Made by a program: the position numbers and the translations under genes. A DNA stretch of 64,000 bases from positions 34,667-98,666 of the forward strand of contig MHTH01000005.1 in NCBI GenBank assembly GCA_001823055.1, read 5' to 3'. Of the stretch, positions 1,602 through 63,570 are shown piece by piece (within the stretch, counting starts at the first letter, position 1; each line of letters opens with the position of its first letter). Under the pieces are notes generated by a model, which did no database searches, was not told the DNA's origin, and was given only the letters and a program-made list of their open reading frames with translations. The stretch comes from Candidatus Vogelbacteria bacterium RIFOXYB1_FULL_42_16. GTDB taxonomy: Bacteria; Patescibacteriota; Minisyncoccia; Phycocordibacterales; XYD1-FULL-46-19.

Positions 1602-3422
1602 ATGGAAAAACACCCTCTTCACCTCAAAAATCCAGAATTACAAACTTCGCCCGAAGTTGATCGGGCGGTCGAACGACAGGAGCGTCGAACCGACCAAAAA
1701 GTGCCTAATGATCCGACTGAGCGTATTGAAGCTTATCTTGACCGACTGGAGAATATTTTTCTTAATCCGGATGAAAGGAAACGCGAGCGCAATCTCGAGA
1801 TGTTTCGAGATAAAATTTATGACACTTTGGTTATCAAACCAGAACAGGTGCCTGAATCATATTTTGAACTTCAAAAACAAGTGGCTAGGGAACATGGCCA
1901 AGCGATTGAAAATATACCGCTAAATGTTCGGGACCAAATGATTGAAACGATCATTGCTGACCAGAAGCATTCTCTTGATCAGTGGATTGACTATTTGACC
2001 TCCGAAGATGTCGCTTATCCGCCTTGGTTTAAATATTTGGTCTGGCGAAATGTTATCAAACTTTCTCAATTTGATAAAACCCTCGGTAAATTCAAGGATC
2101 GCACTGAATCAACAGTGGCTCCTTATCCAGATATTTATCGCGCGCCATTAGCGAAAATTCTCGATATCTATGAGCAAGCGATCAAAGACAAAACCAATCT
2201 TAGAGATTCTGAAGTTCAAGCCAATTTCTCTAAACGTTTTGCCAAACTTTATGCCGAGCTGATTTCAGAATCTTTGGCAGTTCGTATCGAAAACAAAGAG
2301 GAAGTCAAAGGTGTCTGGGTTAAATATTCTAAAGGTAATATGGCCGAGGCCGATAAACTCTTTGAGTCAGTTCAGGCCAAAGGTACCGGCTGGTGCGTTG
2401 AAGGTCGAACGACGGCTCAAAACTATATCAAACAAGGTGATTTTTATGTCTATTACACGGAGGACAATAATGGCTTGCCGACTCAACCTCGTATGGCTAT
2501 CCAAATGAACGGAACGCAAATTGGTCAAATTCGAGGTGTTTTGAATCATCAAGAATTAGAACCGATCATGGCCGATGTTTTGGAGACCAAGCTCAAAGAA
2601 TTTGGGCCGGAGGCTGATAGTTACCAGAAGAAGAATTCTGACATGAAAAAGATGACGGCTATCGAAAAGAAGAGCCAATCGGGGATAGCGTTGTCAAAAG
2701 ACGATTTGGTATTTTTGTATGAAATCGGTGCTCCTATTGAAGGTTTTGGTTACGACCGCGACCCGCGCATTGCCGAGCTTCGCCAAGGCAGAAATCCAGA
2801 GGAAGACATGATGACTATTTTTGAATGTGCTAAAGAGCAAATTGCTCACTCAGCAGCAGAAATTGACGATGACACCATAGCCTATGTTGGTCCTTGGAAT
2901 GTTGCTGTTTATCAAATAATCAAAAAATATCCCCAGATTCAACATCTTTACGAATCTTTTCCTGATCAGAAAATTTTTATGATGACTCAGGAGACCGACC
3001 AGAGGATCAATTCTCTGGCTAAAGCCGAAGAGGTTTTGAAAGCCAAAAATATTTATATTTCAAATTGGGCGCAAGATATTTTGCAAAAAACTGATTTTAG
3101 TCGAGAAGCTAAAACTTACAAGTTGGTTCAATTTACTGTCGAACAGCTGGGTTTTAGTAGTGGTGCTACTACTGACCAAATTTATGCCAAGGCTCAAGAA
3201 TTAGGTTTAAAACTTTGCCCAGCGGAAGTTGGTCCACGACTTCGTCTTCAGTATGATGGTAAAGATTGGAAACTTATTGCCATGAAGCAGATTACCGATC
3301 GCGGTGGCCTTCCGAGTGTTTTCTACTTGCTTGCCGGCGGAGGGCAGTTGGGGCTCTACGCCGATGATGCTCATCCGGACCGCGGGTGGGGTTCGGGCCG
3401 CCGCTTCGTCTTTCTCTCGTAA
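1602..3422 (+). CDS. DGR target (variable) protein; C-terminal ~43 aa encoded by the variable repeat; N-terminal ~560 aa of unknown function, no obvious signal peptide
   Basis: Long ORF (track start 1584 is GTG; ATG at 1602 is more likely). Its last 128 nt are the VR copy of the downstream TR. The variable codons correspond to AAC/AAT codons in the TR, and the C-terminal ...RRFVFLS tail is conserved in both copies. Confidence 0.7.
   Translation: MEKHPLHLKNPELQTSPEVDRAVERQERRTDQKVPNDPTERIEAYLDRLENIFLNPDERKRERNLEMFRDKIYDTLVIKPEQVPESYFELQKQVAREHGQAIENIPLNVRDQMIETIIADQKHSLDQWIDYLTSEDVAYPPWFKYLVWRNVIKLSQFDKTLGKFKDRTESTVAPYPDIYRAPLAKILDIYEQAIKDKTNLRDSEVQANFSKRFAKLYAELISESLAVRIENKEEVKGVWVKYSKGNMAEADKLFESVQAKGTGWCVEGRTTAQNYIKQGDFYVYYTEDNNGLPTQPRMAIQMNGTQIGQIRGVLNHQELEPIMADVLETKLKEFGPEADSYQKKNSDMKKMTAIEKKSQSGIALSKDDLVFLYEIGAPIEGFGYDRDPRIAELRQGRNPEEDMMTIFECAKEQIAHSAAEIDDDTIAYVGPWNVAVYQIIKKYPQIQHLYESFPDQKIFMMTQETDQRINSLAKAEEVLKAKNIYISNWAQDILQKTDFSREAKTYKLVQFTVEQLGFSSGATTDQIYAKAQELGLKLCPAEVGPRLRLQYDGKDWKLIAMKQITDRGGLPSVFYLLAGGGQLGLYADDAHPDRGWGSGRRFVFLS
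3293..3420 (+). repeat. DGR variable repeat (VR) at the 3' end of the target gene
   Basis: Aligns base-for-base with 3739..3866. All 22 mismatches fall at positions where the TR has A (A->G/C/T in VR). The last ~20 nt are identical and GC-rich, consistent with an initiation-of-mutagenic-homing (IMH)-like 3' end. Confidence 0.85.
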
Positions 3423-3738
3423 GTCTTTAAATTTTGATCACTTTGGATTTTTTAGAGATTTTGTTTCTTCTTACCTTTGATTTTTGAAATTTTTTTTGTA
3501 AAATTATCTAGGCTTGATTGATTCAGACGGTTACGGCTTTCTGAAATCTGGCTAGTTGGCACATATTGAGAATGTAAATGGCCAAGGCTTTTTACAGAGG
3601 ATAGGCGTTTTTCTTTCAAAAAAGAAATCAACTTGGTGCGCGATACTGGCGGATTTTTGATCCCAAATAAAATACAGCTAAGCCATTTTATCTTTTTGAT
3701 AATCTGGTCGGCAGTGACACAGATGGTTTCGCGCACAA

Positions 3739-3866
3739 TACCGATCGCGATGGCAATCCGAATGTTTTCAACTTGAATGCCGACGAAGAGCAGTTGAAGC
3801 TCAACGCCAATGATGCTCATCCGGACAACAGGTGGAATTCGGACAACCGCTTCGTCTTTCTCTCGC
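3739..3866 (+). repeat. DGR template repeat (TR)
   Basis: Intergenic copy of the VR, rich in AAC/AAT (Asn) codons in the target reading frame. ORF 3773..4048 in the track is just the TR read in the target frame. A hairpin (CCGCA-tctacaggg-TGCGG) plus T-run follows at about 3875-3905. Confidence 0.85.
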
Positions 3867-3886
3867 CAGAGTCTTCTTTTCCGCAT

Positions 3887-4210
3887 CTACAGGGTGCGGT
3901 TTTTCTTTTCCAAATTATCAGAATTTTTCTTCCAACCACCGAGCATTTTGCCAATCTCTTCGAGTTTGAGGGCGATTTCTTCACATTGACGATGGGAAAT
4001 GAGTTTGGCTTCCCATGCGACCGAGATGAGAAATTTCAAAGTGTCTAATAATAAAATACAGCGGGATATTTTTTCAATTTTCTTGTCTTTGGCGGTAAAA
4101 TAAGCGACATATGACAAATCTAACAAGTCGAGAAATTTATTTTCTATTCTGGCGCCGATAGTATGGCGAGTATTTTTGGCAAGATGAGGAACGATATCAA
4201 TCCAAATCAA
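3887..4210 (-). CDS. avd: Accessory variability determinant (Avd)-like / 23S rRNA intervening-sequence four-helix-bundle family protein
   Basis: 107 aa. The C-terminal ...LEEIGKMLGGWKK matches the EEIGKML-G signature of the Avd/IVS-protein family. Size and position between TR and RT are typical, although it is on the opposite strand. Confidence 0.6.
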   Translation of the reverse strand: MIWIDIVPHLAKNTRHTIGARIENKFLDLLDLSYVAYFTAKDKKIEKISRCILLLDTLKFLISVAWEAKLISHRQCEEIALKLEEIGKMLGGWKKNSDNLEKKNRTL

Positions 4211-4220
4211 ATAACTCTCT

Positions 4221-5246
4221 TTGATACGACTAAGGATCGAAGCATCACCGAGAGAGAGAGAGAGTAAAAGGTGGTCGTGGCATAGTTACGATCATATCAT
4301 TTCTGTTGGAAATTTGCTTCAAGCTTGGCGAGAATTTTTGCGTGGCAAACGTCGACGCCAAGATGTTCAATTATTTTCGCTTCATTTGACTGATAATATT
4401 CTAGCACTACATAGAGAATTGACTCATAAAAATTACTGTCATGGGTCATATCAGGCTTTTAATATCAATGATCCAAAACCGCGTTCCATTCACAAGGCCA
4501 GTGTTCGTGATCGACTAATCCATCACGCTGTCTATCGTATTCTTTATCCATATTTTAATCAGAAATTTATCTATGATTCATATTCTTGTCGTTTAAACAA
4601 GGGGACCCATCGAGCGATAAATCGTCTACGAATTTTTGGTCGAAAAATTTCGCAAAATAACACCAGAACTGTCTGGGTGTTAAAGGGCGATATTAGGAAA
4701 TTTTTTGCTTCCATTGACCATCAAATTCTTATCAACATCTTAAAAAAACACGAACCAGACCCAGATATTATCTGGTTACTGGAGCAAGTGATTGGTAGTT
4801 TTTATACCGCTAGGCAAGGCCTAGGGTTGCCTTTGGGTAATCTGACCTCGCAACTACTAGTAAATATTTATATGAATGAGTTTGACCACTTTGTAAAAAG
4901 GAAATTGAAAGAAAAATTTTACATTCGTTATGCTGATGATTTTGTGATCTTGGGTGATAATAGAAAGGATTTATTAGAATTAATCCCAAAATTATCAAGT
5001 TTTTTGCTAGAACATCTTAAGCTTACTCTACATCCCAATAAAGTTTTTATTAAAACCTTAGCTTCTGGTGTAGATTTTCTTGGTTGGACTAATTTTCCTC
5101 ATCATCGGGTTCTAAGATTTACCACAAGAAGAAGAGTATTAAGAAAGATAAAAAAATCAAAAATGACCACCGCAACCATAGCTTCATATAAGGGCTTATT
5201 AATACACGGTAATACTTATAAACTGCGAAATCTATTTAAGCAATAA
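4221..5246 (+). CDS. DGR-type reverse transcriptase
   Basis: RT motifs present (…LIHHAVYRILYPYF…, YADDFVILG). Motif 4 reads LGNLTSQLLVNIYMNEFD, i.e. the (I/L)GxxxSQ signature that distinguishes DGR RTs from group II intron RTs (QG). The start is uncertain: the track start is TTG, only 10 nt from the divergent avd start. Confidence 0.85.
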   Translation: MIRLRIEASPRERESKRWSWHSYDHIISVGNLLQAWREFLRGKRRRQDVQLFSLHLTDNILALHRELTHKNYCHGSYQAFNINDPKPRSIHKASVRDRLIHHAVYRILYPYFNQKFIYDSYSCRLNKGTHRAINRLRIFGRKISQNNTRTVWVLKGDIRKFFASIDHQILINILKKHEPDPDIIWLLEQVIGSFYTARQGLGLPLGNLTSQLLVNIYMNEFDHFVKRKLKEKFYIRYADDFVILGDNRKDLLELIPKLSSFLLEHLKLTLHPNKVFIKTLASGVDFLGWTNFPHHRVLRFTTRRRVLRKIKKSKMTTATIASYKGLLIHGNTYKLRNLFKQ

Positions 5247-5251
5247 ATTAG

Positions 5252-6800: not shown

Positions 6801-8684
6801 ATGTCTTCTCCACAGACGATTAATTATTTTGGTCAAACTGATTTTCGCGGTCGCAAGACTCGTTTTGGCATTAAGGCTGATGATCGCGCTCGCCATATGT
6901 ATATTATCGGCAAGACCGGTATGGGCAAATCAACCATGTTGGAAAACATGGCCATTCAAGATATTAAAAATGGCGAGGGCATGGCTTTTATTGATCCACA
7001 CGGTAAAACCGCCGAACTTCTGCTTGATTATGTGCCACAGGAGCGAATCAAAGATGTTATTTATTTTGCGCCGTTTGATTTGAATTACCCGATTTCTTTC
7101 AATGTGATGGAGGATGTGGGCAAAGATCAACGACACTTAGTGGCCAATGGCTTGATGGCGACTTTCAAAAAAATCTGGCCCGATGTTTGGTCGGCGCGAA
7201 TGGAATATATTTTGAACAATACTATTCTGGCGTTATTGGAATATCCGAATTCGACTTTGTTGGGAGTCAATCGGATGTTGTCGGATAAAAGTTATCGCGA
7301 TGAAGTGGTTAACAATATCTCTGATCCATCGGTCAAATCCTTTTGGGTGGATGAATTTGCCAAATACAATGAGCGATATATGCAAGAAGCCGGCGATGCG
7401 ATCAAAAACAAAATTGGTCAGTTTACTTCCAACCCGCTGATTCGTAATATCATCGGTCAACCGAAATCGACGATCGATATGCGGGCGGTGATGGATGATA
7501 AAAAGATTTTGATAATCAACTTGTCGAAAGGCCGAGTCGGTGAGCAGAACGCCAGTTTGTTGGGTGGGATGATTATCACTAAAATTTATCTCTCGGCCAT
7601 GTCGCGCGCTAATGCTTCCGAAGAAGAGTTGCGTCGTTTACCCTATTTTTATTTTTTTGTGGATGAATTTCAGTCTTTCGTCAACGATTCTTTTGCTGAT
7701 ATTTTATCGGAAGCACGGAAATATAAATTAAGTTTGACGATTGCTCACCAATATGTTGAACAAATGCCAGAAACGGTACGGAGCGCAGTCTTTGGCAACG
7801 TCGGCACGACGATTTGTTTTCGCGTCGGTCCGTTTGACGCCACGTTGTTAGAAGAAATGTTCTCGCCGACTTTTATGAAAGAAGATTTAGTCAATCTTGG
7901 TTTCGCGCAGATCTATTTAACTATGTCGATCGATGGTGTCGGCTCGCCACCTTTTTCGGCCGTGACTTTACCACCAATTGCTACCGCCGAAGAAAGTTAT
8001 AAACCGCGAATTGTAGAATTTTCGCGGGCGGCTTATGCTATGCCGAGAGAAAAAGTAGAAATTGCTATCAATGACTGGCATGAATTAAAATTTGTGACTA
8101 AAAAAAATACCACTAGTCCTTCCAGTCAGAGTAAAGATTTTTCCGCTAGAAAAACCGCCGAACCGTCGATTAAAAAAACGGAGAATCAAGAAAATAAAAG
8201 ATCAGAACCAATAGAGACCAAAAAAGAATCGGTGCCGGTTTCGACTAGACCGCTCAAACCTGCTTCCTTGAATCAACTTCGAAACGATCACCATAAAACA
8301 GTCGGTGGTCACCGTGAAGCTTTACGGAATGCCCTGCAAGACGTCTTAGCCTCCGTGGTGCAAAAAGAAAAACCAGCCGAAAAATCGGCACCAACTATCG
8401 ACGAGAAGGTAGCTAAAGATAAAAGGGGGATTGAGATAGAGAAAAAAGATCCGGTGGCTATTGATGAGGTAAAACCCGCCGACACTAAAAGCTATGGCGA
8501 GGCAAAGCCCGCTTTCACTGAAAGTTCCGGCGAGGCGAAACCAGTCTCCGCCAAAGGCTCCCAGCCTCCACAAAGTTTCGGCGGGCAGGCCGGCGAGGCG
8601 AGACCCGCCTCCGCCAAAGGCTATGGCGAGGCGAGGGAGGCGCCAGCCGAGCTCTTGAAAAAAATCCTGGCTGGTGAAGAATAG
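6801..8684 (+). CDS. P-loop ATPase, VirD4/TraG/TraD-like type IV coupling protein family, with a low-complexity GEAKPASAKG-repeat C-terminal tail
   Basis: Walker A IIGKTGMGKST and Walker B FFVDEFQSF. The overall architecture resembles T4SS coupling proteins (TraG-D_C-like region). The C-terminus carries degenerate tandem 33-nt repeats. Confidence 0.5.
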   Translation: MSSPQTINYFGQTDFRGRKTRFGIKADDRARHMYIIGKTGMGKSTMLENMAIQDIKNGEGMAFIDPHGKTAELLLDYVPQERIKDVIYFAPFDLNYPISFNVMEDVGKDQRHLVANGLMATFKKIWPDVWSARMEYILNNTILALLEYPNSTLLGVNRMLSDKSYRDEVVNNISDPSVKSFWVDEFAKYNERYMQEAGDAIKNKIGQFTSNPLIRNIIGQPKSTIDMRAVMDDKKILIINLSKGRVGEQNASLLGGMIITKIYLSAMSRANASEEELRRLPYFYFFVDEFQSFVNDSFADILSEARKYKLSLTIAHQYVEQMPETVRSAVFGNVGTTICFRVGPFDATLLEEMFSPTFMKEDLVNLGFAQIYLTMSIDGVGSPPFSAVTLPPIATAEESYKPRIVEFSRAAYAMPREKVEIAINDWHELKFVTKKNTTSPSSQSKDFSARKTAEPSIKKTENQENKRSEPIETKKESVPVSTRPLKPASLNQLRNDHHKTVGGHREALRNALQDVLASVVQKEKPAEKSAPTIDEKVAKDKRGIEIEKKDPVAIDEVKPADTKSYGEAKPAFTESSGEAKPVSAKGSQPPQSFGGQAGEARPASAKGYGEAREAPAELLKKILAGEE

Positions 8685-9813
8685 CTCTATGAGACGAATT
8701 TTAATCTATTCAACCGCTTATTTCCCTCTGGTGGGTGGAGCCGAAGTGGCGATTAGAGAATTGACCGATCGCTTGCCAGAAGACGATTTCGAGCTCATAA
8801 CGGCTCGTTTAAGGCCAAATTTGCCCCGTAGAGAGCAGATTGGACGGGTTTTGGTCCATCGCTTTGGTTTGGGTTTTTTCGGCGACAAAGCCCTCTTGGC
8901 ACTCTTTGGCGGTTTTTATGGTTGGTCATTACACCAGAAAAAACCTTTTGACTTAGTCTGGGGGGTGATGGCTAGTTTTGGTGGTTTTGGCGCCCTAGCT
9001 TTCAAAAAACGGGAACCGAGCGTGCCATTTTTATTGACTTTGCAAGAGGGTGACGAGCTTAAAGAAATTGAACATAAGGCGCGCTTCCTTCGAGGTCATT
9101 TTGTTGATATTTTTCGTCGCGCCGATCATATCCAAGCGATTTCCAATTATTTGGCCGATTGGGCTAGAAAATTAGGTGCCAGTTGCCCAATCGAGGTGGT
9201 GCCAAACGGCGTTGATTTAAAAAAGTTTAAATTGATTGCTAAAAAGGCCGATAAAAATTTTAATGAGAAAATAATCGTCTCGGCTTCGCGTTTGGTGAAG
9301 AAAAATGGTTTAGCTGATCTGGTCTTAGCTTTAAAGTTTTTGCCGAGCCACGTGAAATTATGGCTTTTGGGTGAAGGTGAGGAACAAAAATATTTAAAGC
9401 AATTGATCGAAGAAAGTGGTTTAAACAGTCGAGTCAAGATGCTCGGCTTTATGTCGCCGGAAAAATTACCTGAATTTTATGCTCAAGTCGATATTTTTGC
9501 CCGGCCGTCTCATTCAGAGGGTCTAGGTAACGCTTTTTTGGAAGCGATGGCCTGTGGTTTGCCAGTGGTGGGAACAAGGGTGGGCGGGATTGCTGATTTT
9601 TTGGTTGATAAAGAAACCGGTTTTGTTTGTGAAGTGGCCAATCCGGAAAATGTCGCTAGCAAGATTTCTTATATTCTTGATCCGCAAAATGAAAGCGAAG
9701 TAAATGATATTTTGGCGCGAGCGAAAAAAATGATTATCGAAAAATATGATTGGGATATTTTAGCGCCAAAATTTGAGAATATTTTTACCAAATTATGTCT
9801 GAAAAACCAGTAA
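8674..9813 (+). CDS. Glycosyltransferase family 4 (GT-B, RfaG-like)
   Basis: EGLGNAFLEAMACGLPVVGT motif (GT4 E-x7-E region). Confidence 0.8.
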   Translation: MKNSSMRRILIYSTAYFPLVGGAEVAIRELTDRLPEDDFELITARLRPNLPRREQIGRVLVHRFGLGFFGDKALLALFGGFYGWSLHQKKPFDLVWGVMASFGGFGALAFKKREPSVPFLLTLQEGDELKEIEHKARFLRGHFVDIFRRADHIQAISNYLADWARKLGASCPIEVVPNGVDLKKFKLIAKKADKNFNEKIIVSASRLVKKNGLADLVLALKFLPSHVKLWLLGEGEEQKYLKQLIEESGLNSRVKMLGFMSPEKLPEFYAQVDIFARPSHSEGLGNAFLEAMACGLPVVGTRVGGIADFLVDKETGFVCEVANPENVASKISYILDPQNESEVNDILARAKKMIIEKYDWDILAPKFENIFTKLCLKNQ

Positions 9814-10928
9814 TTTTAATCGCGACGGGTTTATTTCCGCCGGATATTGGCGGTCCCGCCACTTATTCCAAGATTCTAGCTGAAGAATTGCCGGCGCGTG
9901 GTTTTGAGGTGAAAATTTTAAGTTTTGGTGAAGTGAGAAAATATCCGAAAATTATTCGTCATTTTATTTATTTTTTAAAAATCATCAAACGAGGTTGGTC
10001 GGCGGATATTATTTATGCCCAAGATCCGGTCTCGGTCGGTTTGCCGGTCATGTTCGCTAGTTTTTGTTTAGGGCGATCGTATTGGCTCAAGGTGGTCGGC
10101 GATTATGCTTGGGAGCAGGGTAGCCAACGAGCGGGAGTGATGGAAATGTTGGATATTTTTTCAGCTAAAAAAACTGACGATAGTTTTTTGGTTAGGATTT
10201 TAAAATCTACCCAGACTTTAGTGGCGAAAAGAGCTAAAAAAATTATTGTGCCGAGTCAGTATCTTAAAAAGATTATTAGTAATTGGGGGATCAATTCGGA
10301 AAAAGTTAAAGTTATTTACAATGCTTTTGAGGGCAAAAATTTAGAATTAAATCTTGATCAGGCTCGACTAGAATTGGGTTTGGATTTGGGTGATAAAATT
10401 TTAATCAGTGTCGGTCGATTGGTGCCATGGAAAGGCTTTTTGACCTTAATCGCGATTATGCCAAAAATTTTAGTCAAATATCCTTCGACCAAACTATTGA
10501 TTGTTGGTGATGGGCCGGAAGAAAATAATTTAGCAGACCAAATTAAAGAAAATAATTTAGAAAAATCAATCATCATGTTGGGACGATTGGAACAATTAAA
10601 ACTTTTTAAATACCTTCGAACGGCCGATCTTTTTATTCTCAATACTGCTTACGAAGGTTTTTCTCATCAGTTATTGGAAGTGATGAACTTGGGTACCCCG
10701 ATTGCGACTACTCGGATTGGTGGCAATCCGGAATTAATTAATGATAGTAAGAATGGTTTGTTGTTTGGGTATGACAATCAAGAGGAAATTTTTTTGGCGA
10801 TTGATAAGATTTTTACCGATCAGACCTTGGCCGATAATTTGGTGTCTAGTGCCAAAGAAACCGCTAAAGGTTTTACCCGTGCTAAAATGGTAGATAGTTT
10901 AGTGACCGAATTTAAAAAATGCGAATAA
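9795..10928 (+). CDS. Glycosyltransferase family 4
   Basis: GT4-like C-terminal domain (EGFSHQLLEVMNLGTPIATTRIGG). Confidence 0.8.
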   Translation: MSEKPVILIATGLFPPDIGGPATYSKILAEELPARGFEVKILSFGEVRKYPKIIRHFIYFLKIIKRGWSADIIYAQDPVSVGLPVMFASFCLGRSYWLKVVGDYAWEQGSQRAGVMEMLDIFSAKKTDDSFLVRILKSTQTLVAKRAKKIIVPSQYLKKIISNWGINSEKVKVIYNAFEGKNLELNLDQARLELGLDLGDKILISVGRLVPWKGFLTLIAIMPKILVKYPSTKLLIVGDGPEENNLADQIKENNLEKSIIMLGRLEQLKLFKYLRTADLFILNTAYEGFSHQLLEVMNLGTPIATTRIGGNPELINDSKNGLLFGYDNQEEIFLAIDKIFTDQTLADNLVSSAKETAKGFTRAKMVDSLVTEFKKCE

Positions 10929-11055
10929 AAAGATGAGTCCTGTTAGAAACCGCGATCGCGGCAGAGATAAAACAAATAATATGCAAATAAATTACCAGAA
11001 ATTAGTTAATACAGTAAACGATCGAGAGATCGCGATCTGTTTCTAACAGGATGAG
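10929..11055 (+). repeat. ~125-bp palindromic intergenic element, copy A (terminal inverted repeats TCCTGTTAGAAAC...GTTTCTAACAGGA, central AATTACCAGA); may be a MITE or a structured cis-regulatory RNA
   Basis: It begins 3 nt after the upstream stop. Its 3' arm contains the ATG of the 11051 gene. The arms pair over ~22 bp, and a second copy at 13017 shows compensatory changes. Confidence 0.6.
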
Positions 11056-12160
11056 AGTTTTAAGTCTAAGTAATGATCAAAGTTTGTTTAATGATCAATC
11101 GGTGGCTTCTAGGCGCTTGATTGGTTATGGGACGATCGTGGCACGTTTGATGGTGGTCGTGCCGAATCGTTATGATCTTCGTCATGAATTGTCGGATAAG
11201 GTGGAAGTGGTGGGGGTGGGCGGTTGGAGCAAAGAAATAATTTGGTGGCGGTTATGGAAAAAAGCCGGCAAAATTTTAAGTCATGATAATTTTACGCTCA
11301 TTACCGTTCAAGATACTTATTTTATTGCCCTCATCGCTTGGCGCTTGGCGCGAAAATTTAGGTTGCCTTTAGAGATTCAAGTTCACGGCTTCGAGCGTTT
11401 TCATGATGTAAGGAAGTTTTTGGCCAGATTTTTATTACCGCGAGCTGATGGCGTGCGGGTGGTTAGCCAGAGATTAAAGCAGACTTTGGTCGAAGATTTC
11501 AAAGTTCCGGAGGGAAAAATTTCCGTGGTGCCGATTTTTTCTGATTTTAAATGTGAAAAAATTGCTAGTGAAATTTCAACATCAGACAGTGTTTTTTCGG
11601 CTAAAAATCAGGATGAATTTATTTTTTTAACCGTCTCGCGATTAGTCAAAGTTAAAAAGATTGAGACACAAATTGAAGCTTTGCGAGAAATCAGAACTTT
11701 GCATCCAGAAGCAAAATTGTGGATTGTTGGCGACGGTCCAGAGAGAGCCAGTCTAGAACGCTTGGTGGCGGTGATGGGGTTACAGGAAGCGGTTAGGTTT
11801 TGGGGGCGACAAGATGATTTGGCTAATTTTTATCAAACCGCCGATGTCTTTATTTTGACTTCGGATAGTGAAGGTTGGGGTCTGGCGGTCATCGAAGCGG
11901 GGATTTGTGGCTTGCCGGTTTTAATGACGGATGTCGGCTTGGCCGGAGAAGTTGTCATCACTAACGAATCTGGTCTAGTGGTGCCGATTGGCGACTTAGG
12001 TGCTTTGGTGGCCAATATGAGACTAATGATTGAAGATCAAAATTTGCGCCAAACATTAGCCTCAGGATTGAATCTGGTTATTAAAAAATTACCTAATAAA
12101 AATGAGACCTTGGAACTTTACAGACGGGGTTGGGAAAGATTACTATCAAGAAATGGATAA
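11051..12160 (+). CDS. Glycosyltransferase family 4
   Basis: SDSEGWGLAVIEAGICGLPVLMTDVG motif. Confidence 0.75.
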   Translation: MRVLSLSNDQSLFNDQSVASRRLIGYGTIVARLMVVVPNRYDLRHELSDKVEVVGVGGWSKEIIWWRLWKKAGKILSHDNFTLITVQDTYFIALIAWRLARKFRLPLEIQVHGFERFHDVRKFLARFLLPRADGVRVVSQRLKQTLVEDFKVPEGKISVVPIFSDFKCEKIASEISTSDSVFSAKNQDEFIFLTVSRLVKVKKIETQIEALREIRTLHPEAKLWIVGDGPERASLERLVAVMGLQEAVRFWGRQDDLANFYQTADVFILTSDSEGWGLAVIEAGICGLPVLMTDVGLAGEVVITNESGLVVPIGDLGALVANMRLMIEDQNLRQTLASGLNLVIKKLPNKNETLELYRRGWERLLSRNG

Positions 12161-13013
12161 TCATAAACTGAAAATCGGTTTTGTCGGCCAAGGTTGGATC
12201 GGTAAAAATTACGCTGATAATTTTGAGGAACGCGGTTTTGAGGTGATTCGTTATGCTTTAGAAAATGGTTATGATGGCAATAAAGACAAAATTAAAGATT
12301 GCGATATCGTTTTTATTGCTGTACCCACCCCGACAACGCCGAAGGGTTTCGACGACAGTATTGTTCGTCAAGCCGTGGCTTTGGTCGGTCAAGGTAAAAT
12401 CGCGGTCATTAAATCAACTATTTTGCCCGGTACGACCGAATCAATCCAAAAACAATATCCAGAGGTTTTTGTTTTTCATTCGCCGGAATTTTTGACGGAA
12501 AGAACTGCCGCTTATGATGTGGCTAATCCCGGGCGAAATATCATCGGTAGTCCGATTGAGAGTGGGGAATATACTAAAAAAGCCGAAGAAGTCTTGGCGA
12601 TTTTACCGCCGGCGCCATTGGTAAAAATTTGTCGCGCTCGCGAAGCTGAATTATTCAAATATGGTCGGAATTGTTTTTTCTTTACCAAAGTTATTTTTAT
12701 GAATTTACTCTATGATTTGGCGGAGAAAAATGATTGTCGCTGGGAGGTGTTGCATGAGATTATGACCGCTGACCCTTGGATTGGCAATATGCATATTGAC
12801 CCGATTCATAAAAGTGGTCGTGGGGCCGGTGGCCATTGTTTTATCAAAGATTTTTCTTCTTTTGTCGATTTTTATCAAAAAACTGTGGGCGACAAAGAAG
12901 GTGGCGAAGTTTTGAAAGCTAATCTTAATAAAAACATGAAATTATTACTTGATTCGGGTAAAGACCTTGATTTATTGCGAGGCGTTCATGGAGATGACAT
13001 CATTCCTACCTAA
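12153..13013 (+). CDS. UDP-glucose/GDP-mannose dehydrogenase family protein, C-terminal UDP-binding domain absent (truncated?)
   Basis: N-terminal GxGxxG Rossmann motif (KIGFVGQGWIG), ...DIVFIAVPTP..., KSTILPGTT, and catalytic-Cys motif GAGGHCFIKD. The ORF ends ~100 aa earlier than typical UGDH, immediately before palindromic element B. The start is taken at the ATG at 12153. Confidence 0.5.
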   Translation: MDNHKLKIGFVGQGWIGKNYADNFEERGFEVIRYALENGYDGNKDKIKDCDIVFIAVPTPTTPKGFDDSIVRQAVALVGQGKIAVIKSTILPGTTESIQKQYPEVFVFHSPEFLTERTAAYDVANPGRNIIGSPIESGEYTKKAEEVLAILPPAPLVKICRAREAELFKYGRNCFFFTKVIFMNLLYDLAEKNDCRWEVLHEIMTADPWIGNMHIDPIHKSGRGAGGHCFIKDFSSFVDFYQKTVGDKEGGEVLKANLNKNMKLLLDSGKDLDLLRGVHGDDIIPT

Positions 13014-13016
13014 AAA

Positions 13017-13146
13017 TAGATGAATCCCGTTAGAGGCCACGATCACTAGTAAGATTAAAAAATGTATCATAAACCAAACAATTACCAGAGCTTAATTTAT
13101 TTAGAAAACGATTTAGTGGTCGTGATCTGCCTTTAACGGGATGAAA
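13017..13146 (+). repeat. ~125-bp palindromic intergenic element, copy B (ATCCCGTTAGAGGCC...GGCCTTTAACGGGAT arms, central AATTACCAGA)
   Basis: Same architecture and central motif as copy A, and the same placement: it starts just after a stop codon and ends with the ATG of the 13141 gene. Arm substitutions relative to copy A are compensatory. Confidence 0.6.
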
Positions 13147-14187
13147 TTATTGATTATTACCCAAAAAGTGGACATTAATGATCCGATCCTCGGCTTTTTT
13201 CATCGGTGGATTGAGGAATTTGCTAAACATGGCGAAAAAGTGACGGTAATTTGTTTACAGCAAGGGGAATATCATTTACCAGCCGAAGTGCGAGTTCTAT
13301 CTTTAGGTAAGGAAAATGGTCAATCTCGCTTGAAGTATCTTTGGAATTTTTACAAATATCTTTGGCAAGAGCGCAAAAATTATGACAAAGTTTTTGTGCA
13401 TATGAACCCAGTTTATATTATTTTGGCTGGTTGGTGGTGGCAATTGGCCAATAAATTAGTTTTTCTCTGGTATACTCATCGCCAAGTTGATTTAAAATTG
13501 AGAATAGCCGAAAAATTTGTTAATAAAATATTTACCGCCGCTCCAGAAAGTTTTACTTTAGTTAGTAAAAAAGTCTGTGTGGTAGGCCACGGCATTGATG
13601 TTGGCGCTTTTGCTTGCCCAATTCGTAATATTGATAATCAAAAAATTAATTTGCTTCATGTGGGCAGAATTACTAGAATTAAAAATTGTGATATCTTCAT
13701 CGAGGCTGTTCGATTGCTGCGTGAAAATTACCAGCGATCAGTTAAAGCGGTTTTTATCGGCGAAGCTGTGACAGTGGATGATGTTGTTTATAAACAAAAA
13801 TTACTAAATCAAATCAATCAATCTGGCCTCGATGGAGTGGTTGAATTTCGAGGCAGTGTCGCTAATCGGGAGATGCGAGAACAGTATTGTATGGCTGATT
13901 TGACTGTCAATTTGACCCCGACCGGCGGAATCGATAAATCGGTTTTGGAATCGATGGCGGCTGGTGCACCAGTGCTGACCTCTAACCAAGCTTTTAGATA
14001 TTATTTTGGAGAATATGCTAGTACTCTTTTGTTTATAGAGAGAGATGCGGGTGATTTGGCCAGCAAAATCGCTGAACTAGTTTTTAATAAAGATTTTCAG
14101 CAAATTGGTGTTAATTTAAAAAAAATAGTTTCAGAAAGGTCTGATGTAAAGAATTTGATTAAAAAAATGGTTAGTCAAATGTCATGA
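13141..14187 (+). CDS. Glycosyltransferase (GT4-like, GT-B fold)
   Basis: C-terminal GGIDKSVLESMAAGAPVLTS motif. Confidence 0.7.
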   Translation: MKLLIITQKVDINDPILGFFHRWIEEFAKHGEKVTVICLQQGEYHLPAEVRVLSLGKENGQSRLKYLWNFYKYLWQERKNYDKVFVHMNPVYIILAGWWWQLANKLVFLWYTHRQVDLKLRIAEKFVNKIFTAAPESFTLVSKKVCVVGHGIDVGAFACPIRNIDNQKINLLHVGRITRIKNCDIFIEAVRLLRENYQRSVKAVFIGEAVTVDDVVYKQKLLNQINQSGLDGVVEFRGSVANREMREQYCMADLTVNLTPTGGIDKSVLESMAAGAPVLTSNQAFRYYFGEYASTLLFIERDAGDLASKIAELVFNKDFQQIGVNLKKIVSERSDVKNLIKKMVSQMS

Positions 14188-15251
14188 AGACGATTTGTTT
14201 TTTTGGTATCTATGATCGCAATTATTCTCGAAACAGAATTTTGATGGTTGGTTTTAAAAAAAATAATTGGCAGGTGATTGAGTGTCTGGTTGATCCTAAA
14301 AAATATCATGGCTGGAAAAAATACTGGCAATTATTAAATGAACGCAAGCTTTTAAATATTGAACCAGACCTCGTTTTGGTTGCTTATCCTGGTCAAACAA
14401 TGGTTTGGTTGGCTCGCTTGTTATTTTTGCGCAAGTTACTCGTTTTTGATGCTTTTACCTCACTATATGACTCCAATGTTTTTGATCGCCGACTTTATGG
14501 TCAGTGGAGCTGGAGAGGTGGTCGAGATTTTTTATTAGATTGGCACAGTTTGTTTTTAGCCGATAGAGTTTTAGTTGACACGCATCGAAATGCTAAATAT
14601 TTTCAAAAAACTTTTAGGATTAAGGCAAAAAAATTCATCAGAGTTTTTGTCGGCACAACCATTGGTAGTGAATTTTTGACTGAAGAAAAACGCAAAAAAG
14701 ATGACAATATCTTCCTAGTCCATTTTCATGGGCACTACATTCCTTTACAGGGGATAGAGTATATAGTAAAAGCGGCCAAAATTTTAGAAAAAGAAAAAGA
14801 CATAAAATTTAGGATTATTGGCCATGGTCAAGAGTTTGGAAAAATTTCTCAATTAGTTGAAAGGTTAAAATCCGTCAATATTGAATTTTCCCTGGAGGTT
14901 TCTTTTGTTGCTTTAAAACAGATGATACTCGAATCGGATCTAGTCTTAGGTATTTTTGGTATTACGCCAAAAGCTGAACGGGTTATACCCAACAAGGTTT
15001 TTGAAGGGTTGGCTCTAGGTAAGGCTGTTCTAACTGCTGATACGCCAGCTATCCGCGAACTTCTTATTGACGGAGAGAATGTGTTATTATGTCAAGCGGG
15101 CAATCCGAAAGATTTAGCCCAAAAAATTATTTTTTTACACGAGAATCCAAGATTGGCTGAGAAAATTGCCACTAATGGTCAGAACTTAATTGTCCGGGAA
15201 ATTAACCCCCAAAAATTAGTAAAAAAATTAATCTTCAATCTTAATATCTAA
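14184..15251 (+). CDS. Glycosyltransferase (GT-B fold, GT4/GT1-like)
   Basis: VIPNKVFEGLALGKAVLTADTPAIRELL motif. Overlaps the upstream gene by 4 nt (operonic). Confidence 0.65.
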   Translation: MKTICFFGIYDRNYSRNRILMVGFKKNNWQVIECLVDPKKYHGWKKYWQLLNERKLLNIEPDLVLVAYPGQTMVWLARLLFLRKLLVFDAFTSLYDSNVFDRRLYGQWSWRGGRDFLLDWHSLFLADRVLVDTHRNAKYFQKTFRIKAKKFIRVFVGTTIGSEFLTEEKRKKDDNIFLVHFHGHYIPLQGIEYIVKAAKILEKEKDIKFRIIGHGQEFGKISQLVERLKSVNIEFSLEVSFVALKQMILESDLVLGIFGITPKAERVIPNKVFEGLALGKAVLTADTPAIRELLIDGENVLLCQAGNPKDLAQKIIFLHENPRLAEKIATNGQNLIVREINPQKLVKKLIFNLNI

Positions 15252-15266
15252 GTTTTTCAATCGATT

Positions 15267-15959
15267 ATGTTTTATTTTGCCAATACCAGAAAGCCAAATT
15301 TTAATAAAATTGAGAAAATCAACTACAATCGATATTGGCAGGAAAGAGGTTTTGAATTGAACAAAAAATTGAAAGAAAGGGAAGAAATTATCCTTGATCT
15401 TATTCCGGTCGGGGCAAAGGTTTTAGATATTGGTTGCGGTAATTCTCGCTTGCCGGTAGTTCTTAAAGCAAAAGGTTGTTTGCTAACAGTGGCTGATATT
15501 TCGGGTGAAGTGCTGGCCGGTTATCGGCAATATGATCTGGAAGGGTGGATAATTGATTTAGAAAACATCAAGCCTGATTTACCTGATTCTGATTATGACT
15601 TTATAATCTTGAGTGAAGTTTTGGAACATACCACTAATCCGGAGGAGATAATTTTAACACTTAAAAAACACACGAAAAATTTTATCATTACTATTCCCAA
15701 TAGCGCTTTTTACCGCTATCGTTTCCAGCTGATGTTTGTCGGTCGTTTTTTTACTCAATGGGTTTACCATCCGTCCGAGCACTTGCGTTTTTGGTCACAT
15801 CTTGATTTTCTTGATTGGCTAAGAGCTTTAGATTTAAAAATGATTAAAACCATTTCTTCCAACGGCCTTTCTTTTGGTGGCTTGATGCCATGGTTAAAGT
15901 ATATTTGGCCGAATCTGTTTGGCCATCAAATAGTTTATTATTGTTCAGTAAAGAAATAA
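15267..15959 (+). CDS. Class I SAM-dependent methyltransferase
   Basis: VLDIGCGNSRL glycine-rich SAM-binding motif I. Confidence 0.6.
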   Translation: MFYFANTRKPNFNKIEKINYNRYWQERGFELNKKLKEREEIILDLIPVGAKVLDIGCGNSRLPVVLKAKGCLLTVADISGEVLAGYRQYDLEGWIIDLENIKPDLPDSDYDFIILSEVLEHTTNPEEIILTLKKHTKNFIITIPNSAFYRYRFQLMFVGRFFTQWVYHPSEHLRFWSHLDFLDWLRALDLKMIKTISSNGLSFGGLMPWLKYIWPNLFGHQIVYYCSVKK

Positions 15960-15966
15960 TAATCAG

Positions 15967-16953
15967 ATGCCAGAAAAAAAATATAAAATAGCGATTATTA
16001 ATCCCTTTCGTCCGGATGGTTTAGCCCGTACTATTTTTGATGGCATCTTATTGCTAAACAAAATTGGATATAATTTTGATTTCAGAATTTCCAGTCGATT
16101 TGATTATCCTTTACTTCTAAATGACCACTTTGTTTCCAAAGATCAGTTTATTAATTTTGCTAAAGACGCTGATCTAGTTTTTCTTATTTGGGGAAAAGAT
16201 AATACGGATATTAAATTGGCTGAAATAATTGATTGTTGGAGAAAGACTGTTTTTATTGACGGATCAGAAGTGGGGAAAAATCGCCGTTATGATTTTATTA
16301 TCCAAAAGAAAATTATTGATGGCCAGTATCAAGATAATGGTGCGATAAATAGAGAAATGCTTAAAAAATGCCCCCTTTATTTCAGGCGAGAGAAGCCTTA
16401 TTCTACTGGCATAGAACCATTGCCATTTGGTATAGAAACTAGATATCTGCAGTCTTATGATAAAAAAATAAAGAAAGACATAGATTTTTTCTGTGTTTTT
16501 GGTCAAGAGGAATACCCATTAATGAGGCGATATGCCCGTGAATTATTGGAAGCTTATTGTGCTAAAAACGGCTTCATTTGTCATACCCAAAAAACAAAAA
16601 CTCCAAAAGAATTTTATCAGCTCTTGGCTCGTTCCAAGGTAGGTATTTCTGTCGGTGGCGGTGGGTATGACAGCTTTCGCTTCTGGGAAATTCTGGGTAA
16701 TAATTGCTTGCTTTTAACTGAAAAAATAGACATTTTTGAATCGAACAGCAGGATGCTTAACTATAAGCGTATTTTTCAGTTTAATAATCTATTCGATTTT
16801 CAATCTCAACTGGAAAAAATAGGAAATTATTTGAAAACAGAATATAAAGCTAGTAATTTAGAAAAAGAATATGAGATTATCCTGAAACAACACGGTACTC
16901 ATTCTAGAGTTAAAAAAATTTTTGAAGTTGCAAAAAGTCGAGGGATCGTATAA
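15967..16953 (+). CDS. Hypothetical protein in glycan locus (possible glycosyltransferase-like)
   Basis: ORF only. Lies within the polysaccharide biosynthesis cluster. No recognisable motif. Confidence 0.35.
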   Translation: MPEKKYKIAIINPFRPDGLARTIFDGILLLNKIGYNFDFRISSRFDYPLLLNDHFVSKDQFINFAKDADLVFLIWGKDNTDIKLAEIIDCWRKTVFIDGSEVGKNRRYDFIIQKKIIDGQYQDNGAINREMLKKCPLYFRREKPYSTGIEPLPFGIETRYLQSYDKKIKKDIDFFCVFGQEEYPLMRRYARELLEAYCAKNGFICHTQKTKTPKEFYQLLARSKVGISVGGGGYDSFRFWEILGNNCLLLTEKIDIFESNSRMLNYKRIFQFNNLFDFQSQLEKIGNYLKTEYKASNLEKEYEIILKQHGTHSRVKKIFEVAKSRGIV

Positions 16954-17773
16954 ATTCTTAAGTATTATGGAACAAAAACAAGATAATTATGATTGTGCCA
17001 TCATCGTTCCGTCCTGTGACAGTTATGAAGATTCGTGGCAACCTTTTTTTAGTTTCTTTTTTAAATATTGGCCAGATTGTCCTTTCCCAGTTTATCTTTT
17101 AACCGAGAAAAAGGTTTACCCTGATACAAGAGTTAAGACAATAAACCTAGGTGTTGATCATGGTTGGGCAAATAATATGGAAATTTGTTTAGAAGGTATC
17201 TCGGAAAGATATTTTATCTATTTTTTGGAAGATGTCTTTCTCACTAAAAAAGTAAATACAGAAAGAATTATTAAATTATTAAAAATTCTTAAAGATGACC
17301 AAGTTTCCTGTCTGCGTTTATATCCTAGCCCTGGTCCCGATTATCCATATTCTCGGGATAATGATTTAGGAGTAATTAAAAAAGATGCTTCTTATCGTGT
17401 TTCAACCATGACGGCAATTTGGGACAAAAAGTCTTTTCTTCGCCTGCTTAAACCAGGGGAAAATGCCTGGCAAATGGAATTAGAGGGAACCAAACGATCT
17501 TGGTTGATAAACGACTTGTATTTAAGTGTTTGGCCAAAATCACCGGCTATCGAGTATTTTGCTACTGCCATAAAACGTGGCAAATGGCTATACGACGTCG
17601 CCTCATTCTGTCATCGGGAGGGAATAGCGGTAGATTTTACTCGTCGACCAACTGAAACCATGTGGCGATATTTTTGTCGCCGACTGGAAAGGACGCCAGT
17701 GCTGGGCTGGTATTTTAAATTGCCCTCTCGCTTGAATAATTTTGCTAAAAGGGTAATATTCCGTGATATATGA
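16922..17773 (+). CDS. Hypothetical protein in glycan locus
   Basis: ORF only. An alternative start at ATG 16967 avoids overlap with the upstream gene. Confidence 0.35.
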
Positions 17774-63388: not shown

Positions 63389-63432
63389 CTCAGTTTTGCG
63401 CGTTGATATTTTATTGCACGGATAGTCGAATA

Positions 63433-63516
63433 AATTTGTCAAAAAAACTTTCTTAATTTCAAAATGGGTGGGCTTGGACCTGGGTTTTGAAATTAAGAAA
63501 GTTTTTTTGACAAATT
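63433..63516. repeat. 84-bp perfect hairpin: 32-bp AT-rich inverted repeat arms flanking a GC-rich 20-nt loop (TGGGTGGGCTTGGACCTGGG)
   Basis: AATTTGTCAAAAAAACTTTCTTAATTTCAAAA ... TTTTGAAATTAAGAAAGTTTTTTTGACAAATT are exact reverse complements. Located between rpe and tkt. Confidence 0.85.
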
Positions 63517-63570
63517 TTGTTTGTGAGTTTTTCATATTCTCATTAGTATTTTTGAGGTATAATTAAGTGG

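Follow-up and report, generated by a model that had tools for sequence, protein, structure and literature searches.

A 64,000-nucleotide stretch of the genome of Candidatus Vogelbacteria bacterium RIFOXYB1_FULL_42_16 (the window) carries two hairpin elements, copy A (10933–11055) and copy B (13020–13145). Both lie within a glycosyltransferase operon, at the starts of the genes that begin at 11051 and 13141. Coordinates are window positions unless a locus label (L followed by a number) is given. We consider it probable that A and B are non-autonomous members, similar to MITEs (miniature transposable elements with inverted repeats), of a family of hairpin-ended mobile elements widespread in Patescibacteria (the candidate phyla radiation, CPR). 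This judgment covers the explanation as a whole, proposed mechanism included. Among its parts, we have high confidence that the copies are mobile hairpin elements inserted at start codons, moderate confidence that translation of a short internal open reading frame (ORF) would be coupled to that of the host gene, and lower confidence that a GIY-YIG protein could be the mobilizing enzyme. The family is found almost only in the sense orientation and at ATGRR (R is a purine), which is nearly always the start codon of a gene. Its size, inverted termini, flanking duplication, copy number, and empty sites are those of a MITE as operationally defined. A preliminary description of this DNA had correctly placed two ∼125-bp palindromes here and had viewed them as either cis-regulatory RNAs or structured MITEs. 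The MITE proposal is borne out by a dispersed multi-copy family with terminal inverted repeats, direct repeats, presence/absence polymorphism, and tandem arrays, whereas the riboswitch-like proposal fails on grounds presented below.

The first indication of insertion comes from the borders of the element. Family statistics are based on 123 non-redundant copies (122 in some counts), and in 87 of the 123 a direct repeat of 4–6 bp stands directly outside the terminal TCCC...GGG. The repeat is 5 bp long in 71 copies, 4 bp in 11, and 6 bp in 5. It consists of ATG plus two variable bases (AA, GA, AG, CG, GG, TC, or CA), although two copies have repeats lacking ATG (ATTTTA at L083 and CGTTG at L038). 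When the target is reconstructed, ATG-R-R is found at 91% of the sites versus 40% of ordinary gene starts in the same loci, and 69 of 70 sites have a purine at position 5. Since the element leaves a direct repeat of 4–6 bp, an intact ATG is regenerated at its 3′ end. The start codon is not donated by the element, as had been proposed earlier, but is the host gene's own, and it lies within the 5-bp direct repeat at both element ends.

Comparison of related loci reveals both empty and filled sites. Loci L140 (empty) and L141 (filled) encode the identical glycosyltransferase P0005 and are 99.1% identical over 1501 bp up to ...GCTAAAATGA. At the junction ...GCTAAA/ATGA/AATTG, L140 runs straight into the next gene, whereas L141 has a 113-bp element, and ATGA can be aligned to either side of this insert. 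The gene at the insertion is the orthologue of the gene downstream of copy B. The start codon occupied by copy A (site A) is empty in L138, a syntenic locus (TrwB-GT-GT-GT, where GT is a glycosyltransferase gene) whose genes overlap. In another relative (L140), the same start codon is filled by an element of a different subfamily. For many other genes next to an element, the orthologues have none. Furthermore, different subfamilies share single ATGRA units in tandem arrays, and one element type is present at the starts of both ssb and pheT in a single genome, with 3 nucleotide differences in the 42-nucleotide region compared.

Two further observations concern rearrangement near these sites. 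Identity between L141 and L140 falls from 99.1% to 82.5% exactly at the insertion (L141:1–1501 and 1615–1882 versus L140:1685–3185 and 3182–3449), and therefore a boundary of recombination or allele replacement within a polysaccharide gene cluster falls at the element. In the window, an ORF upstream of copy B (12102–13013, within 12009–13140) has the N-terminal and central domains of UDP-glucose/GDP-mannose dehydrogenases and lacks the C-terminal domain. The two glycosyltransferase genes are adjacent in L140 (TAA-A-ATG). Thus, the window carries an extra segment of ∼1.1 kb, composed of the dehydrogenase fragment and copy B, that ends at the ATGAA target. This segment may be a rearrangement or a gene fragment associated with the element.

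Members of the family were identified by pattern and covariance searches. A pattern made from blocks common to A and B revealed a third copy (copy C) on another groundwater contig (L007), where, in the same orientation, it separates the def stop codon from the fmt ATG. Thus, the element is not restricted to glycosyltransferase genes. This pattern raised the number of copies to three in 77 kb of this organism. A covariance model of A, B, and C, a search of the kind proposed in the preliminary description, detected no more in the window or L007, and its other matches were generic terminator-like hairpins. A strict pattern containing the central ATTACCAG core had no matches in viral contigs or in GTDB species-representative genomes and recovered only the def/fmt copy from metagenomes, which means that the core is specific to the subfamily of this organism. 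In contrast, a pattern restricted to the arms matched at least 117 loci in ∼70 Patescibacteria genomes, where ∼0.5 chance matches are expected. Metagenome-assembled genomes (MAGs) among the matches listed carry the names Paceibacteria, Lipton-, Sung-, Nomura-, Terry-, Wildermuth-, Yanofsky-, Zambryski-, Brenner-, Levy-, and Daviesbacteria, and similar ones. One Liptonbacteria MAG holds at least 10 loci and several others hold at least 5. The arms pattern had no matches in viral contigs, and hence there is no evidence for carriage by phages.

The consensus of the 123 copies comprises a flanking ATGNN, the 5′ arm TCCCGTTAGAAGC-CGCGATCGC, an A-rich loop of 56–78 nucleotides, the 3′ arm GATCGCG-ATCT-GCTTCTAACGGG, and the ATGNN of the gene. 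In variant notation, the outer arms are TCCCGTTAGARRC (5′) and GYYTCTAACGGG (3′). The arms comprise 13 + 7 bp, the elements are 113–130 bp long, and their only ORFs are mini-ORFs of 20–40 codons. Terminal inverted repeats of 13 nucleotides, TCCCGTTAGARRY...RYYTCTAACGGGA, are conserved. The arms are almost invariant, and where variation is present it affects both arms jointly. For example, two adjacent positions occur in four purine-purine versions, each of which is met by complementary pyrimidines. Over 20 pairs in 123 copies, 98.7% of the cells are paired. Double changes occur at six pairs in 45 cells, versus 6.1 ± 2.2 in shuffled controls, and these counts understate the true variation of the arms because the search pattern fixed many of their columns. 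Conservation is confined to the stem columns, with the loop left free to diverge. Every predicted fold contains the outer 14-bp stem, which takes in the A and U of the host AUG, and the loop is mostly open. The ratio of G·U to A·C pairs on the sense strand (19 versus 9, with the last pair dropped and many columns fixed by the pattern) is not decisive for which strand folds.

In additional size classes and subfamilies, the outer termini TCCCGTTAGA...TCTAACGGG are all that is shared with these copies (L057:1286–1340; L099:5262–5462; L021:6550–6700, minus strand; L085:6274–6410). They include a 55-nucleotide mini-hairpin nested in another copy, a ∼200-bp variant, and forms of 115–150 bp without the inner GCGATCGC stem. 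A search of ∼0.9 Mb of fetched loci for a long autonomous element, with arms 0.5–3 kb apart, uncovered none and returned only variants of 55, ∼180, and ∼285 bp, the last of which contains a GIY-YIG gene. The cyanobacterial HIP1 context was also considered. The single occurrence of GCGATCGC in the window is inside copy A, and therefore the genome is not rich in HIP1.

The placement of the element is far from random. In 107 of 123 copies, the ATG or GTG following CGGG is exactly the start, on the same strand, of an ORF with 60 codons or more, and alignments of the downstream genes with their orthologues begin at residue 1. A co-oriented upstream ORF ends within 200 nucleotides of 99 of the 123 copies, and 13 of these ORFs end at the TAG inside GTTAGA of the 5′ arm. 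The preliminary description had made random placement or orientation without conserved pairing the mark of a simple MITE. This choice proves to be a false one, since copies elsewhere are placed and oriented non-randomly and retain their pairing, yet the element is mobile. Upstream flanks include a −10-like TAnnnT box in 49 of 122 copies, most often 6 nucleotides before the left ATG, and an SD-like (Shine-Dalgarno) 4-mer in just 12 of 122. This suggests that some, perhaps many, of the targeted genes are leaderless or SD-independent in these CPR genomes.

The two copies in the window exhibit this architecture in detail. They form hairpins with ∼67% identity and compensated arms, directly adjoining the ATG of a glycosyltransferase gene in each case. 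All features are on the forward strand. Copy A begins with the left direct repeat ATGAG (10933–10937), a duplicate of the host start codon plus 2 nucleotides that also opens a 37-codon ORF (10933–11046). Its 5′ arm (10938–10960) includes outer TCCTGTTAGAAAC (10938–10950) and inner CGCGATCGCG (10951–10960) segments. An A/U-rich loop (10961–11027) follows, and this holds the genome-specific core AATTACCAGA at 10990–10999. The 3′ arm (11028–11051) is composed of inner GATCGCG (11028–11034), unpaired ATCT (11035–11038), and outer GTTTCTAACAGGA (11039–11051). The right repeat ATGAG (11051–11055) is the start of a GT4 glycosyltransferase gene (11051–12160). A mini-ORF that initiates in the loop (10981–11046; MQINYQKLVNTVNDREIAICF) is in frame with the 37-codon ORF and terminates at a TAA in the 3′ arm, 4 nucleotides 5′ of the host ATG.

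Copy B has the left repeat ATGAA (13020–13024), a 5′ arm (13025–13048) with outer TCCCGTTAGAGGC (13025–13037) and inner CACGATCACTA (13038–13048) parts, and a 3′ arm (13114–13141) with inner TAGTGGTCGTG (13114–13124), unpaired ATCT (13125–13128), and outer GCCTTTAACGGGA (13129–13141). The right repeat ATGAA (13141–13145) is the start of a GT4 glycosyltransferase gene (13141–14187). Its loop-initiated mini-ORF (13062–13136; MYHKPNNYQSLIYLENDLVVVICL) also ends at a TAA in the 3′ arm, 4 nucleotides 5′ of the host ATG. The central AATTACCAGA, noted previously as shared by the two copies, recurs in B at 13080–13089. The stop codons 5′ of the copies end at 10928 and 13013, and the direct repeats begin 4 and 6 nucleotides later.

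Both copies are predicted to fold as long hairpins, with free energies of −34.4 kcal/mol for A (z = −4.9) and −38.5 kcal/mol for B (z = −5.9), and none of 200 shuffled sequences was as stable. This folding check and the compensatory nature of the arm substitutions had been proposed in the preliminary description. The substitutions are confirmed as T-A versus C-G (tip), AA/TT versus GG/CC, and G-C versus A-T (inner stem), and the same compensation recurs across the wider family. Just the A and T of the host ATG pair with the 5′ end of the hairpin. The flanking genes encode co-oriented GT4 glycosyltransferases, and the ORF upstream of B is UDP-glucose-dehydrogenase-like. The contig carrying A and B recurs in several Rifle-type groundwater metagenomes. 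Identity to the downstream glycosyltransferase does not exceed 63% among its nearest homologues, whose names are Paceibacterota or Patescibacteria, and the organism is therefore a CPR bacterium. In all three copies of this organism, AG directly precedes the left ATG or ATT (AGATGAG, AGATGAA, and AGATTAA; 10931–10934, 13018–13021, and L007:12392–12395). Family-wide, G is present at position −1 in just 12 of 70 sites. The AG in this organism may reflect a local target preference or chance.

The loop of the element commonly carries a short reading frame. In all three copies of this organism, a loop ATG opens a frame of 21–24 codons that ends at the TAA of the 3′-arm TAAC, 4 nucleotides 5′ of the host ATG. 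A loop mini-ORF of at least 15 codons that remains open through the 3′ arm is present in 64 of 122 copies, compared to 7.1 ± 2.6 when loops are shuffled (maximum 15 in 500 trials) and 8 when loops are reverse-complemented. If two further frames are counted, one with its end at a TGA that overlaps ATGA and one that lengthens the host protein, 91 of 122 copies have an ATG-initiated ORF running through the 3′ arm. Differences between related copies fall at codon positions 1, 2, and 3 with counts of 49, 70, and 61, and of 114 single changes, 33 are synonymous and 81 are non-synonymous. It appears from these comparisons that the open frame, rather than the peptide sequence, is what is kept. The mini-ORF peptides have no match in Pfam. 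Loops are also enriched for the ATG context TATGAA (38 versus 7.9 expected) and for the motif GCAGA (34 versus 4.2), a possible pairing partner for the 3′-arm TCTGC (the "bulged" ATCT included) in an alternative local hairpin. The 0–4 nucleotides separating stop and start correspond to distances reported for termination-reinitiation coupling (PMC6728339, PMC10666635, PMC12548453).

Some relatives of the element carry a gene. At L125:7484–7766, a 285-bp variant with the same outer termini and an ATGA repeat has as its interior an 86-codon ORF whose TGA overlaps the host ATG. The product is a match to the Pfam family GIY-YIG (PF01541, E = 2e-16) and comprises 86 amino acids and the catalytic domain only. 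Its score against a group I intron endonuclease model is 18.9 bits, versus a cut-off of 56. Searching databases with this protein yields 769 matches at E ≤ 1e-10. Among the best 120 of these, 100 end in ...LTG (85 in FLSLTG), which corresponds to the 3′ arm TCT CTA ACG GGA in frame, and 34 begin with M-x-P-V/L/I-R/K/E (19 with MNPVRD), which corresponds to the left repeat and 5′ arm in frame. Overall, hundreds of such 86-amino acid genes stand between the same 13-nucleotide termini, with a stop codon that overlaps the host ATG. Three of these proteins, examined in loci L126–L137, are encoded by genes with the arrangement ATGA/TCCCGTTAGAGAY...RTCTCTAACGGG/ATGA between co-oriented host genes, such as map/GIY/ruvX. 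In the loci examined, the GIY-YIG gene is the only one found between such termini. The nearest solved relative of the protein is 1ZG2, an uncharacterized UPF0213 protein. GIY-YIG genes have been listed among genes transferred from Patescibacteria (PMC12455944).

A mechanism that accommodates these features can be proposed. The 125-bp copies would derive from GIY-YIG-bearing elements, and their movement would depend on these or on another trans-acting enzyme. In mRNA, the arms would pair and bury the host AUG. Ribosomes could start either at the duplicated upstream AUG (as in copy A, 10933–11046) or at an AUG in the A-rich apical loop, and then translate through the 3′ arm and melt it. They would halt at the UAA 4 nucleotides before the host AUG, or at the UGA overlapping it, and re-initiate. 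Because re-initiation would occur at the host AUG, insertion could be tolerated even ahead of essential genes. The earlier suggestion that the stem occludes the translation-initiation region is structurally correct, and its relevance is probable, given that most copies contain an internal mini-ORF by which the stem would be opened.

We extend this mechanism only tentatively to the proposal of an unrecognized class of prokaryotic transposable element. A stand-alone 86-amino acid GIY-YIG nuclease might act on hairpin or cruciform termini. The element might target ATGRR start codons, capture the host's initiation signals for its own ORF, and return ribosomes to the host gene by termination-reinitiation at the regenerated ATG. 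The 125-bp copies in the window would then be non-autonomous derivatives, and recurrent insertion at gene starts might mark recombination breakpoints in CPR surface-polysaccharide clusters.

Several facts weigh against this explanation or parts of it. The repeat varies between 4 and 6 bp in length, and in 36 of 123 copies it is decayed or missing. The covariation of the arms does not separate RNA folding from a DNA hairpin or cruciform, or from constraint by a single end-binding protein. Since 31 of 122 copies have no ATG-initiated ORF through the 3′ arm, coupling cannot be the sole route to expression of the host gene. The 77 kb available from this organism (the window and L007) contain no GIY-YIG gene. 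Short copies have the inner GCGATCGC stem and the ATCT bulge, and the GIY-YIG elements have neither. The putative link between the two runs only through the 13-nucleotide termini, the target, and the taxa that they have in common. To our knowledge, GIY-YIG is not an established transposase, and we know of no transposase type that consists of an 86-amino acid catalytic domain without a DNA-binding domain. Finally, several orthologous gene starts are occupied in different species, including L140 and the window, which could indicate that copies have long been retained by host selection instead of inserting repeatedly.

This last point raises the alternative that an element of mobile origin has been domesticated and is now kept by its hosts as a genome-wide module for translational control or mRNA processing, for example to set expression ratios within operons. 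Orthologous starts are filled in different species at L047/L077, L017/L055, L044/L052, L062/L104, and site A (window versus L140). The arms are near-invariant over several CPR lineages, mostly Paceibacteria-group phyla with a few Microgenomates-type names, even as the loops diverge, and copies reside ahead of essential genes. However, the filled orthologous sites have different subfamilies and repeats, which fits re-insertion at hot spots. Moreover, most orthologues have no element, close strains are polymorphic, and the perfect 5-bp repeat in 71 of 123 copies suggests young insertions. We therefore regard domestication as unlikely.

A host cis-regulatory RNA, either an attenuator or a riboswitch-like structure, would have been selected at these loci, with a hairpin that hides the start codon and opens on a signal. 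Stable hairpins that bury the A and U of the AUG, compensated stems, strict sense orientation, and the alternative pairing of GCAGA with TCTGC are all in keeping with such a role. The genes downstream argue otherwise. The genes following 101 copies belong to 158 Pfam families, none of which occurs more than three times, and they include rplD, rplM, secY, topA (topoisomerase I), pyrG (CTP synthase), and argS (ArgRS). This incoherence rules out a pathway-specific riboswitch. In addition, the stem alone is conserved and the loop varies, leaving nothing like the core of a ligand pocket. There is no match in Rfam, either at gathering thresholds or at E ≤ 5, and the direct repeats, tandem arrays, and strain-level presence or absence are marks of insertion. 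Regulation specific to these loci is largely refuted, and we consider a cis-regulatory RNA improbable.

Even less support exists for the view that the copies, like integron attC, serve as recombination sites for a cassette system in which a site-specific recombinase shuffles genes. Like such sites, they are imperfect palindromes of 100–130 bp with conserved GTT.../...AAC cores and unpaired bases, and the ORFs on either side are co-oriented. Within a polysaccharide cluster, a two-gene unit is enclosed by the two window copies. The shift from 99% to 82% identity exactly at the element in L140/L141, and the extra segment with a dehydrogenase (Ugd) fragment that ends at copy B in the window relative to L140, could also be read in this manner. 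However, the core order GTTAGA...TCTAAC is the mirror image of attC (RYYYAAC...GTTRRRY), the variable ATGNN repeats resemble target duplications rather than a fixed crossover core, and copies are scattered singly ahead of housekeeping genes. Pfam scans of window genes in 6801–17773 and of the 101 genes directly downstream of copies detected no integrase domain; other neighbors were not screened. Least credible of all is a functional small peptide (toxin, signal, or leader) under selection, since the common C-terminus ...IAICF of the strongly over-represented mini-ORFs (MK.NI.KINN...Q.RELIAICF in one subfamily) is the conserved 3′ arm in frame, changes show no third-position excess (49/70/61) and are 71% non-synonymous, other copies use two further frames or have no ORF, and Pfam has no match.

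The window also holds several other features. A second, unrelated family of hairpin repeats with arms of ∼33 nucleotides (AAATTTGTCAAAAAAACTTTCTTAATTTCAAAA and its complement) is represented by a perfect inverted repeat at 63432–63517 and by another copy 3′ of fmt on the other contig (L008:1341–1470). Upstream of the glycosyltransferase cluster, at ∼3850–5250 (L001:2837–4196), is a diversity-generating retroelement module in which a bAvd accessory gene lies beside an RVT_1 reverse transcriptase. This module is followed by a gene for a TrwB/HerA-like ATPase (6801–8684). A perfect 48-bp palindrome without a spacer (TCCCCGAGGGTAACCCTAGGGAAA / TTTCCCTAGGGTTACCCTCGGGGA) is present at 423–470.

Genomes of CPR bacteria are ∼1 Mb in size and gene-dense, and they are thought to be poor in mobile DNA. 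The element exemplifies how a selfish sequence could live with almost no intergenic space, namely by duplicating the start codon, keeping one orientation, and carrying a short ORF that ends at the host ATG. Its copies sit on the start codons of genes that include rplD, rplM, secY, ssb, and pheT. There are consequences for genome annotation, as gene callers already output extended GIY-YIG proteins that begin with MNPVRD..., and for assembly, since the repeats are likely to break metagenomic contigs. If the GIY-YIG protein is the mobilizing enzyme, then this nuclease family would join the known types of transposase, and the widespread UPF0213/YhbQ-type proteins would gain a testable function. 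The hairpin and mini-ORF together might serve as a natural and compact cassette for translational coupling.

The closest counterparts of the CPR element are bacterial MITEs and palindromic repeats such as the Neisseria Correia/NEMIS, enterobacterial ERIC/IRU, and pneumococcal RUP and BOX elements. These are ∼100–150 bp long, with hairpin-forming terminal inverted repeats and a flanking target duplication, and they occur as many dispersed copies that lack a transposase gene and are co-transcribed with their neighbors. The CPR element resembles them in these respects, presumably also in co-transcription. In contrast, its termini are unrelated in sequence, its target is ATGRR at start codons, where a 5-bp repeat restores the ATG, its orientation is near-obligately sense, and its mini-ORF is open through the 3′ arm. 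Furthermore, the family spans several lineages rather than one genus, and its only coding relative carries a GIY-YIG gene instead of a DDE transposase. Full-text literature searches, whose coverage excluded most subscription journals, revealed no description of this element or of ends shared with a GIY-YIG gene.

The REPIN-RAYT system likewise includes non-autonomous hairpin repeats with compensatory arms that persist across related lineages, and a small gene of the nuclease type bordered by these repeats in inverted orientation (PMC3116915). By analogy, the short elements look like miniature derivatives of the GIY-YIG-bearing element, as REPINs do of RAYTs. RAYT is an HUH/Y1 enzyme, and none was seen in the loci examined, whereas the candidate partner here is a GIY-YIG domain. 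REP units have GTAG/CGTC tags (PMC3733652), and this tag is absent from the consensus of the CPR element, whose termini are TCCCGTTAGA.... In addition, REPINs are extragenic, lack a target duplication, and are not located at start codons. The coding relatives share the GIY-YIG catalytic domain with free-standing homing genes (phage T4 seg/mob and I-TevI) and with UPF0213/YhbQ-type proteins. Like homing genes, they are selfish-looking genes wedged between host genes of a compact genome with overlapping starts and stops. However, homing enzymes are larger and have DNA-binding domains, whereas the CPR protein has 86 amino acids and only the catalytic domain. Homing genes rely on homologous repair and have neither inverted-repeat ends nor a duplication, whereas the CPR gene lies within 13-nucleotide inverted termini and an ATGA repeat.

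Other mobile inserts are tolerated at or inside coding sequences. Rickettsia palindromic elements are translated within the host protein, and translational-bypass inserts (T4 gene 60 and the mitochondrial byps, which are flanked by matching codons) are skipped by the ribosome. The CPR element is similar in being a palindromic mobile insert that is tolerated because a frame or start is preserved, but its position is upstream of a regenerated start codon, and it includes stop codons and a short ORF of its own. Integron attC sites are imperfect palindromes with conserved 7-bp cores containing GTT/AAC and with unpaired bases, located between co-oriented ORFs. The CPR element matches them in length, GTT/AAC-containing cores, unpaired bases, and position, but differs by its mirror-imaged core order, the absence of an integrase context in the genes scanned, its varying flanking repeats, and its single scattered copies. 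Riboswitch, REPIN, and attC identities were thus rejected by gene coherence and Rfam, by the REP tag, and by core order, respectively. As a small mobile repeat, the element is ordinary in kind, and it is unusual in its behavior and distribution.

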